From the IMG/VR virus record IMGVR_UViG_2703718828_000006: 12,133 bases of DNA. One strand, 5' to 3'. Of the stretch, positions 4,622-4,818 are shown piece after piece; positions within the stretch are counted from its first letter, which is position 1; each line of letters starts with the position of its first letter. The translations under genes were made by a program, and so were the position numbers. Below the pieces are notes generated by a model that saw only the letters and a list, made by a program, of their open reading frames with translations, searched no databases and was not told the DNA's origin. The DNA is from a virus. Taxonomy: Duplodnaviria; Heunggongvirae; Uroviricota; Caudoviricetes.

Positions 4622-4818
4622 GGTGAAACAGGTGGAACAGGTGTTACAGCATTGTTTTGTAAAACATTTATATGCACATCACAGGTGAAACATCGCAGGT
4701 AACAAGGTGGAACAGCGGATCGGCTGGCGTTCCACCTGTTCCACCTCACTATTTCAGAAGGTGAAACAGGTTTAGCCCTTGTAAAATACGGGTGTTCCAC
4801 CTGTTTCACCTGTTACCC
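4622..4818. repeat. Iteron array (candidate replication origin / alpha-binding sites)
   Basis: At least ten copies of GGTGRAACA and its complement TGTTYCACC in both orientations, including tandem triplets at 4622..4648 and 4793..4818. AT-rich TTGTAAAA stretches lie between them. Directly downstream of the primase gene. Confidence 0.65.

Follow-up and report, generated by a model that had tools for sequence, protein, structure and literature searches.

At which site, and through what kind of initiator, does a P4-like satellite of Escherichia coli start its replication? The question is raised by a dense array of short repeats at 4622-4818 of the virus record IMGVR_UViG_2703718828_000006. The window, that is, the whole 12,133-bp stretch of DNA analysed here, contains a complete P4-like satellite of ~11.9 kb, and the host chromosome is that of E. 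coli. All core genes of the element lie on the minus strand, encoding an integrase, a helix-turn-helix (HTH) regulator, an Icd-like protein, a DUF5375 protein and an 890-aa primase-helicase (the replicase), followed, after the array, by a Sid/Psu-like and an Ogr/Delta protein (Table 1). The 400-bp intergenic region between the replicase gene and the sid-like gene (4445-4844) is 100% identical to that of strain EC1515 and was found in 331 of the 5,426 complete genomes of E. coli. It consists of two separate parts, the iteron array beside the replicase gene and a pair of TGT-N12-ACA dyads beside sid. Our analysis indicates that the array is very probably the single replication origin of the satellite, and that this origin, although carried by a P4-like element, is of the type of Staphylococcus aureus pathogenicity islands (SaPIs) and of chromosomal islands that are inducible by phages (PICIs).

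The repeat unit, GGTGRAACA or TGTTYCACC, occurs in eight exact copies within 189 bp (4622-4810), of which those at 4622, 4631, 4684, 4706 and 4760 are in the plus sense and those at 4737, 4793 and 4802 in the minus sense. Nine exact 9-mers were found in the entire window against 0.20 expected, and at least nine were reached in none of 200 dinucleotide-preserving shuffles. Two further units carry one mismatch, one inside the array (4728-4736) and one just outside it (4593-4601), and three degenerate units (GGTGTTACA, GGTAACAA and TGTTACCC) lie on columns where relatives have good iterons. There are thus 12 iteron positions within 4622-4818, or 13 with the outlier at 4593, which bears out the first-pass annotation, where at least ten units in both orientations had been counted. 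Tandem Repeats Finder independently reported 9-bp arrays at 4622-4643, 4729-4746 and 4793-4814, and no long direct repeat was found within the array. Scans for exact and one-mismatch units between the att sites found no second iteron cluster that could be an ori1 or crr partner, and the portal gene contains four dispersed near-matches (432, 648, 844 and 943), for which chance would account (4.9 expected in the window).

The array begins 27 bp past the stop codon of the primase-helicase gene (4845-4847) and extends 27-250 bp past it, in agreement with its initial placement downstream of the primase. Read in the orientation of the replicase, with forward (F) and reverse (R) copies numbered by their distance from the stop codon, its map is F27' F35 F44 / R77 / F100 F109' / R131 R140' R153 / AT-rich / R197' R206 R215 / F244'. 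The outermost sets (4622-4639 and 4793-4810) form a perfect 18-nt inverted repeat. The lowest GC content, 0.20-0.23 per 30 nt, is found at about 4644-4679, and the stretch from 4644 (4644-4673) is the sole 30-nt stretch with a GC content of 0.2 or less in the core region 3400-9000. The AT-rich spacer at 4644-4683 is a candidate DNA-unwinding region. Copies right beside this stretch share one orientation (the 4622-4648 set, and 4684, 4706 and 4760), and the opposite-sense copies (4728/4737 and 4793-4818) lie beyond them. The AT-rich separators that had been described between the units proved real in part: the octamer TTGTAAAA occurs twice between sets, but segments of this type part only some of the iteron sets, and other spacers are GC-rich, such as that at 4715-4727. 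Two non-iteron blocks bordering the array (4825-4838 and 4566-4580) show little variation across seven elements with replicases of 67-100% identity. A sequence similar to the second block, TTTTTCCTGGCTGGCC, is also present at 3339-3355, past the delta gene.

To see how the array is kept in other elements, 35 loci with replicase relatives of 36-100% identity were fetched, ranging from Enterobacterales to proteobacterial metagenome-assembled genomes (MAGs). One array, and only one, was found ~30-430 bp past the gene in all assessable loci except six, with locus L030 ending too soon after the gene for assessment. From element to element, the unit changes in all of its copies at once, in step with the divergence of the replicase. 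Replicases at least 97% identical to that of the window are accompanied by GGTGGAACA, those of Pantoea (91%) and Yersinia (74%) by GGTGTAACA, and those of Rouxiella, Y. aldovae, Intestinirhabdus and Oxalobacter by GGGGTAACA, CTGGTAACA, GTGGTAACA and TTGGGGACA, respectively; units in MAGs are GGGACAAGC, GGCGTTACAG and GGGGAACC. Enterobacterial arrays align colinearly, and the order FF.R.FF.RR.[AT].RRR is kept in the window and in L006, L008, L010 and L012 (Pantoea, Yersinia, Rouxiella and Y. aldovae), becoming looser in distant loci. The AT minimum lies 160-200 nt past the stop codon in the enterobacterial relatives tested. Moreover, the array accompanies the DUF927 helicase part of the replicase in loci without sid, delta or the P4-type primase domain, for example in L025, L028, L029, L033, L035 and L037, suggesting that it is tied to the helicase/initiator module and not to the late genes.

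Selection on single bases is visible within E. coli. Among variants ~92% identical in the spacer, the eight exact iterons have no substitution at any of their 64 non-degenerate positions, and 37 of the 400 sites are variable overall. The fifth iteron position toggles between A and G in four of the eight exact units. The iteron positions that appear to be read are under purifying selection. In the common E. coli variants, the copy at 4728 has decayed to GATGTAACG, a sequence corresponding to none of the iteron forms observed in the analysis, and its importance is uncertain. These data also bear on whether the repeats are a DNA site at all, rather than coding sequence or a structured RNA. Two mechanical open reading frames (ORFs) overlap them, 4520-4702 (+) and 4597-4809 (-), and the single strand of the array folds well (z -5.2), as expected from inverted iterons, of which such a fold is a by-product. 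Conservation, however, follows the 9-bp units and not codons, a natural 1-bp deletion at 4779 in E. coli would frameshift the ORF at 4597-4809, the listed genomes have no RefSeq annotation at this place, and no Rfam family reaches threshold in the array, so that a coding or RNA function deserves almost no credence.

The neighbouring late promoter could point to a regulatory role instead, in which the repeats would be operators for Delta, an AlpA/Vis-like HTH protein or an immunity factor, controlling the sid-delta late operon or transcription that runs on past the replicase gene. The distance from the array to the Psid-type promoter downstream of it is 60-290 bp, and consensus scans of 4350-4950 detected neither a sigma-70 promoter nor an intrinsic terminator; no such terminator stands between the replicase gene and sid. 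The promoter region itself is a neighbour of the array and lies outside it. Its two dyads are 38 bp apart, with the proximal one centred 43.5 bp from the ATG of the sid-like gene at 4444, and both the spacing and the distance are identical to those of Psid in P4 (9493-9510 and 9531-9548; sid ATG 9583). By direct comparison with the P4 sequence, we take the two dyads to occupy -55 and -18. A dyad pair with 38-bp spacing is kept in L005, L014, L017, L020 and L008. The sites of Delta/Ogr, which have the consensus TGT-N12-ACA (PMC3931495), are present separately from the repeats; the array travels with the DUF927 gene where no sid, delta or other P4-like gene was detected, and its architecture matches that of validated origins. 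An operator function is accordingly very unlikely.

Clustered short repeats in both orientations are also known at packaging and partition sites, and the array could in principle be a cos/pac or centromere-like site or a cluster of integrase arm sites. Matches to the P4 attP core, however, were found at both element ends (~36-131 and ~11918-11951), where the 12-bp arm repeats also lie, and no partition genes were detected. It is the helicase gene that the repeats follow, and not the integrase or cos. A cos-like junction is present elsewhere, after delta, though as a weak match, and on this ground the cos/pac reading was rejected. Overall, a packaging, partition or integration site at this position is barely plausible.

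The protein encoded next to the array is consistent with an origin function of the array. Pfam recognised Zn_Ribbon_Prim, Toprim_3 and DUF927 in the 890-aa primase-helicase, which RefSeq names 'TOPRIM and DUF927 domain-containing protein'. In BLASTP, homology to P4 alpha is limited to residues 1-316 (zinc ribbon and Toprim; 37% identity), with nothing past 316; the rest of P4 alpha consists of D5_N, DUF5906 and Pox_D5, whereas that of the satellite replicase is DUF927. A relationship of the C-terminal part to the origin-binding domain of P4 alpha was also considered and rejected, the hhalign comparison of a profile of the last 277 residues (614-890) with P4 alpha giving a probability of 0.1% in addition to the missing BLASTP match. 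Searching the Protein Data Bank by sequence with the helicase part retrieved 8tch (SaPIbov1 Rep) and 5dgk (Cch of SCCmec, a staphylococcal cassette chromosome). An AlphaFold model of residues 614-890, made with 38 homologues, has a mean predicted local distance difference test (pLDDT) score of 79.5, exceeding 90 over the last ~100 residues, and the same two structures were the only significant Foldseek matches to it, with 200-227 aligned columns. The predicted C-terminal fold also gives a TcpK-like winged-helix match. Residues ~790-890 are presumed, on the basis of this model, to form the iteron-binding module, and the primase-helicase is presumed to be the initiator that reads the array.

The replicase evolves unevenly, its P4-type primase third changing much faster than the DUF927 part. 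Identity to the window replicase is 81% in the primase versus 96% in the DUF927 part for Pantoea, and 58% versus 83% for Yersinia. In many distant relatives, from MAGs, no P4-type primase domain is detectable beside the helicase part, in line with domain shuffling.

These features resemble those of SaPI replication. The DUF927-containing Cch is related to SaPIbov1 Rep, and SaPI Reps are self-loading helicases (PMC7581432; PMC9371898) that recognise iterons through a winged-helix C-terminal domain (PMC9371898). In SaPIs, the iterons lie immediately downstream of rep, with an AT-rich region between oppositely pointing sets (PMC7581432; PMC9371898), and in SaPI1 and SaPIbov1 the Rep binds and melts the origin, rep and ori together driving autonomous replication (PMC9371898). 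More generally, the origins of SaPIs and Gram-negative PICIs sit just after the replicase gene (PMC7581432; PMC6092414; PMC9371898), and DUF927 has already been grouped among PICI primases (PMC10111431). The satellite shares with SaPIs an origin directly downstream of the initiator gene, an AT-rich region and short iterons (6-12 or more). The array lies immediately 3' of its putative initiator gene, 27 bp past the stop codon, and most relatives are alike in this respect. Multiple iterons, in 12-13 positions, include at least two on each side of the AT-rich region and point in opposite directions. The matches of the DUF927 part and the predicted fold suggest a hexameric helicase with a C-terminal winged-helix domain, and, at the level of whole elements, sequence comparison suggests that the iteron is specific to its cognate Rep and changes with it. 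The satellite initiator is homologous in its helicase part to SaPIbov1 Rep (8tch; Rep2 or SF6 MCM-like type) and to SCCmec Cch (5dgk), and its C-terminal fold is predicted to be the same. The satellite differs in its Gram-negative host, its P4-like element, its 9-bp unit and its off-centre AT-rich region, and the primase of SaPIbov1 is of the archaeo-eukaryotic primase (AEP) type (PMC7581432), whereas that of the satellite is a fused DnaG-type Toprim homologous to P4 alpha.

A comparable origin is found in the same host species. For its replication, the pri-rep-ori module of EcCICFT073 was shown to require the gene as well as the ori (Fillol-Salom et al. 2018, PMC6092414). This element was located in strain CFT073, with its origin at 11997-12284 of locus L041, consisting of 9-bp CTGTCTACC units over about 230 bp in the order F14 F23 / R72 / F91 F102 F111 / R144 R156 / ... 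/ R224 R233. The order of forward and reverse copies, the 9-bp unit length and the position in the gap after the replicase gene are common to both arrays, and both elements have the same unidirectional layout of int, HTH gene, Icd-like gene, ..., replicase, ori and capsid-remodelling genes. They differ in the unit itself and in the module downstream, where the satellite has the sid/delta pair of P4 and a promoter of the Psid type; the helper of the satellite is presumably P2-like, not lambdoid as for EcCICFT073. The Pri-Rep of EcCICFT073 is of the D5_N/DUF5906/Pox_D5 type and is not detectably related to the helicase or C-terminal part of the satellite replicase. The repeat grammar is nonetheless shared by these unrelated initiators.

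The relation to P4 is more distant than the gene content suggests. Both elements have sid, delta, a leuX-type att site, a cos-like site and a zinc-ribbon/Toprim primase domain, but P4 alpha has a D5-type superfamily 3 helicase and a Pox_D5 C-terminal origin-binding domain, whereas the helicase and origin-binding domain of the satellite belong to another family. P4 needs both ori1 and crr. In the P4 record, crr (4291-4590) lies directly downstream of alpha and the type-1 repeats of ori1 (9310-9413) lie directly upstream of Psid and sid, so that the two cis elements are ~4.5 kb apart; in the satellite, where the sid module follows the replicase gene, one array occupies both positions. The annotated type-1 repeats of P4 are GGTGAACA/TGTTCACC, and the satellite unit corresponds to the octamer GGTGAACA with one extra central base (GGTG-R-AACA). 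The likeness to the P4 alpha iteron proposed in the first-pass annotation stands to this extent, but the implied recognition of the P4 alpha type does not, given a C-terminal DUF927 part unlike that of P4 alpha. The unit is nearly identical to the P4 octamer although the binding domain is non-homologous. The exact octamer is absent from the array and occurs in the window only at 2602 and 8569. P4 crr comprises two 120-bp direct repeats, and ori1 has adjacent 10-bp type-2 repeats; the satellite array has neither, and the only 10-bp tandem arrays in the window (9717-9797) are 5 kb away. Abutting copies at 9-bp spacing are found in P4 crr as in the satellite array. A correspondence with P4 ori1/crr consequently fails, there being a single cluster, no exact octamer, no 120-bp repeats and another helicase family, but the more general proposal of a satellite origin is well supported by the position, architecture and comparative sequence evidence.

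From the comparison with P4 one could also suppose that the array binds the replicase without being the initiation site, serving as a crr-like accessory or copy-control (handcuffing) element while initiation would take place elsewhere in the element. The P4 cluster directly downstream of alpha is crr and not the initiation site ori1, and elsewhere, for example on Vibrio cholerae chromosome II, iterons are described as limiting over-initiation (PMC3401445). Against this, no second iteron cluster lies between the att sites, the array itself includes the core's stretch of highest AT content, flanked by opposed iterons, and SaPI and PICI systems of the same layout have their origin at this position. 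An accessory role is therefore improbable.

If the array is an origin of the SaPI/PICI type, a mechanism can be proposed. The 890-aa primase-helicase would bind the 9-bp GGTGRAACA units by means of the winged-helix region at its C-terminus, reading eight of the nine iteron positions and leaving the fifth free. With opposed iteron sets flanking the AT-rich stretch 4644-4683, hexamers would assemble facing each other, melt this stretch and load onto the single strands, no separate loader being needed. Unwinding of the DNA would then fall to the MCM-like DUF927 motor, and primers for the host polymerase would be made by the fused Toprim primase. We infer binding, melting of the AT-rich spacer, double-hexamer assembly and origin activity from the evidence above.

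Several observations weigh against this interpretation. SaPI iterons are penta- or hexanucleotides (PMC9371898), whereas the satellite unit has 9 bp. The AT-rich spacer is off-centre, with nine iteron positions lying towards the replicase gene and, across the spacer, three together with the outlier. No array was found downstream of the gene in six relatives (L021, L022, L023, L026, L032 and L034), although in L022 the protein match ends at query residue 856, short of the C-terminus, and the downstream window is perhaps misplaced. The C-terminal model is moderately confident overall (predicted template modelling score 0.57), and its structural matches have 12-15% sequence identity. The predicted winged-helix residues (790-890) do not covary cleanly with iteron changes, and between the 91%-identical replicases that use GGTGRAACA and GGTGTAACA the differences are not concentrated in the C-terminal domain but lie mostly in the primase part. 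The base separating these two units is a position already degenerate in E. coli, and the search for a specificity determinant in this pair was uninformative.

Table 1 Features of the satellite and of its putative origin (window coordinates)
Feature	Position	Strand	Remarks
att core and 12-bp arm repeats	36-131 and 11918-11951		
Two abutting 12-bp arm-type repeats, TTTTATGCCCCT	106-128		
Weak P4 cos-like junction, GGCGGGCGGGGCTGTGCAC	~3183-3213	-	24 nt at 87.5%, E 0.05; 3' of delta
Ogr/Delta gene	3411-3683	-	
Sid/Psu-like gene	3683-4444	-	ATG at 4444
Psid-type late promoter region, two TGT-N12-ACA dyads	4479-4496 and 4517-4534	-	Neighbour of the putative origin, outside it
Non-iteron block: T-rich run, then CTGGCNGGC (replicase orientation)	4566-4580		Far array edge
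Outlying one-mismatch iteron GCTGAAACA	4593-4601	-	
Replicase-distal set: GGTGAAACA, GGTGGAACA, degenerate GGTGTTACA (4640-4648)	4622-4648	+	First 18 nt are the inverted repeat of 4793-4810
AT-rich spacer with TTGTAAAA (4657-4664)	4644-4683		GC 0.20-0.23; first bases overlap degenerate copy 4640-4648
Inner group: GGTGAAACA (4684), degenerate GGTAACAA (4698-4705), GGTGGAACA (4706)	4684-4714	+	Reverse copies +131 to +153
Abutting iterons CGTTCCACC (one mismatch) and TGTTCCACC	4728-4745	-	Forward copies +100, +109
Single iteron GGTGAAACA	4760-4768	+	Reverse copy +77; same place in enterobacterial relatives mapped
Proximal spacer with TTGTAAAA (4779-4786)	4769-4792		Moderately AT-rich; poorly conserved in relatives
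Replicase-proximal set: TGTTCCACC, TGTTTCACC, degenerate TGTTACCC (4811-4818)	4793-4818	-	Forward copies +27, +35, +44 nt from stop
Non-iteron block ATAAGACTCACGC (GCGTGAGTCTTAT in replicase orientation)	4825-4838		Between stop codon and first iteron
Primase-helicase gene, 890 aa	4845-7517	-	
Predicted winged-helix-like region, residues ~790-890	4848-5150	-	Strands and helices; high-confidence part of the model
tRNA-Leu(CAA)	11928-12012		

The other parts of the element vary among its relatives. The sid-like gene is directly followed by delta, with no psu (3411-4444), the commoner E. coli variant of the lineage having sid, psu and delta (L038 2431-4000); in the Pantoea relatives L006, L019 and L036, delta precedes a divergent sid-like gene. 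Within the att boundaries, a portal gene on the plus strand (309-1388) has ~90% identity, over nearly its full length, to portals of P2-like phages (peduoviruses). TGT-N12-ACA dyads are present upstream of its ORF (250-267) and across the mechanical GTG start of that ORF (308-325), and the gene looks like late-gene material of a helper captured beside the hotspot. This hotspot, which is variable and has the cos-like site on one side and the portal gene on the other, is occupied by a 558-aa ORF on the minus strand (1416-3092) with no Pfam family and only a weak PADLOC match to DitB (E 1e-4). At the same position, RefSeq lists a shorter DUF4062 protein in EC1515, and the common E. coli variant (L038) has an AAA family ATPase. 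The 558-aa ORF is a candidate for defence cargo.

The early region also has features of its own. Upstream of the HTH gene, in the early regulatory region, are two adjacent 10-bp tandem arrays at 9717-9797 (ATTACACTGT x4.5 and CCCCTTATAG x3.6), recalling the three 10-bp 'ori type 2 repeats' of P4 upstream of ORF88. Tandem arrays with unrelated units are found at a similar place in L018, L006, L020 and L008, and none in L004, L005, L007, L011 and L017. In an Rfam scan of the whole window, only the tRNA reached the gathering score and no immunity RNA of the P4 kind (C4/IsrK-type) was detected; the immunity system of the lineage may differ from that of P4. A DNA similarity search of phage records gave nothing useful, P4 itself being unmatched.

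The type of origin proposed here is already established for SaPIs and Gram-negative PICIs and is no new kind of system. The searchable literature yielded no description of the origin of this satellite or of a hybrid P4-primase/DUF927 replicase in P4-like satellites. A wider reading, which we consider rather unlikely, is that a widespread P4-like lineage, found in about 6% of the complete genomes of E. coli, has exchanged the D5-type helicase, the origin-binding domain and the two-part ori1/crr of P4 for a self-loading helicase of the SaPIbov1 type, fused to a P4 primase, and one compact origin at the place of both crr and ori1, with the likeness of the iterons and the shared repeat order being more than coincidence. 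If this were true, the iteron of an octamer plus one base could mean a retained origin module, or cross-talk or incompatibility between co-resident satellites, and the same repeat order under unrelated initiators (D5-type in EcCICFT073, DUF927 in the satellite) would point to a general code for the assembly of self-loading double hexamers, independent of the DNA-binding domain.

In summary, the array is very probably the cis-acting site for replication in a satellite lineage common in E. coli. It suggests that replication as in P4 is not shared by all 'P4-like' satellites, this lineage combining a P4 primase with a helicase/initiator of the SaPIbov1 type in a hybrid replicase that would act at an origin of the PICI type, which is relevant to the annotation of satellites and to predicting the compatibility of co-resident elements. 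The natural series of replicases and their iterons (GGTGRAACA, GGTGTAACA, GGGGTAACA, CTGGTAACA and more) may serve for the study of how self-loading helicases choose their origins.

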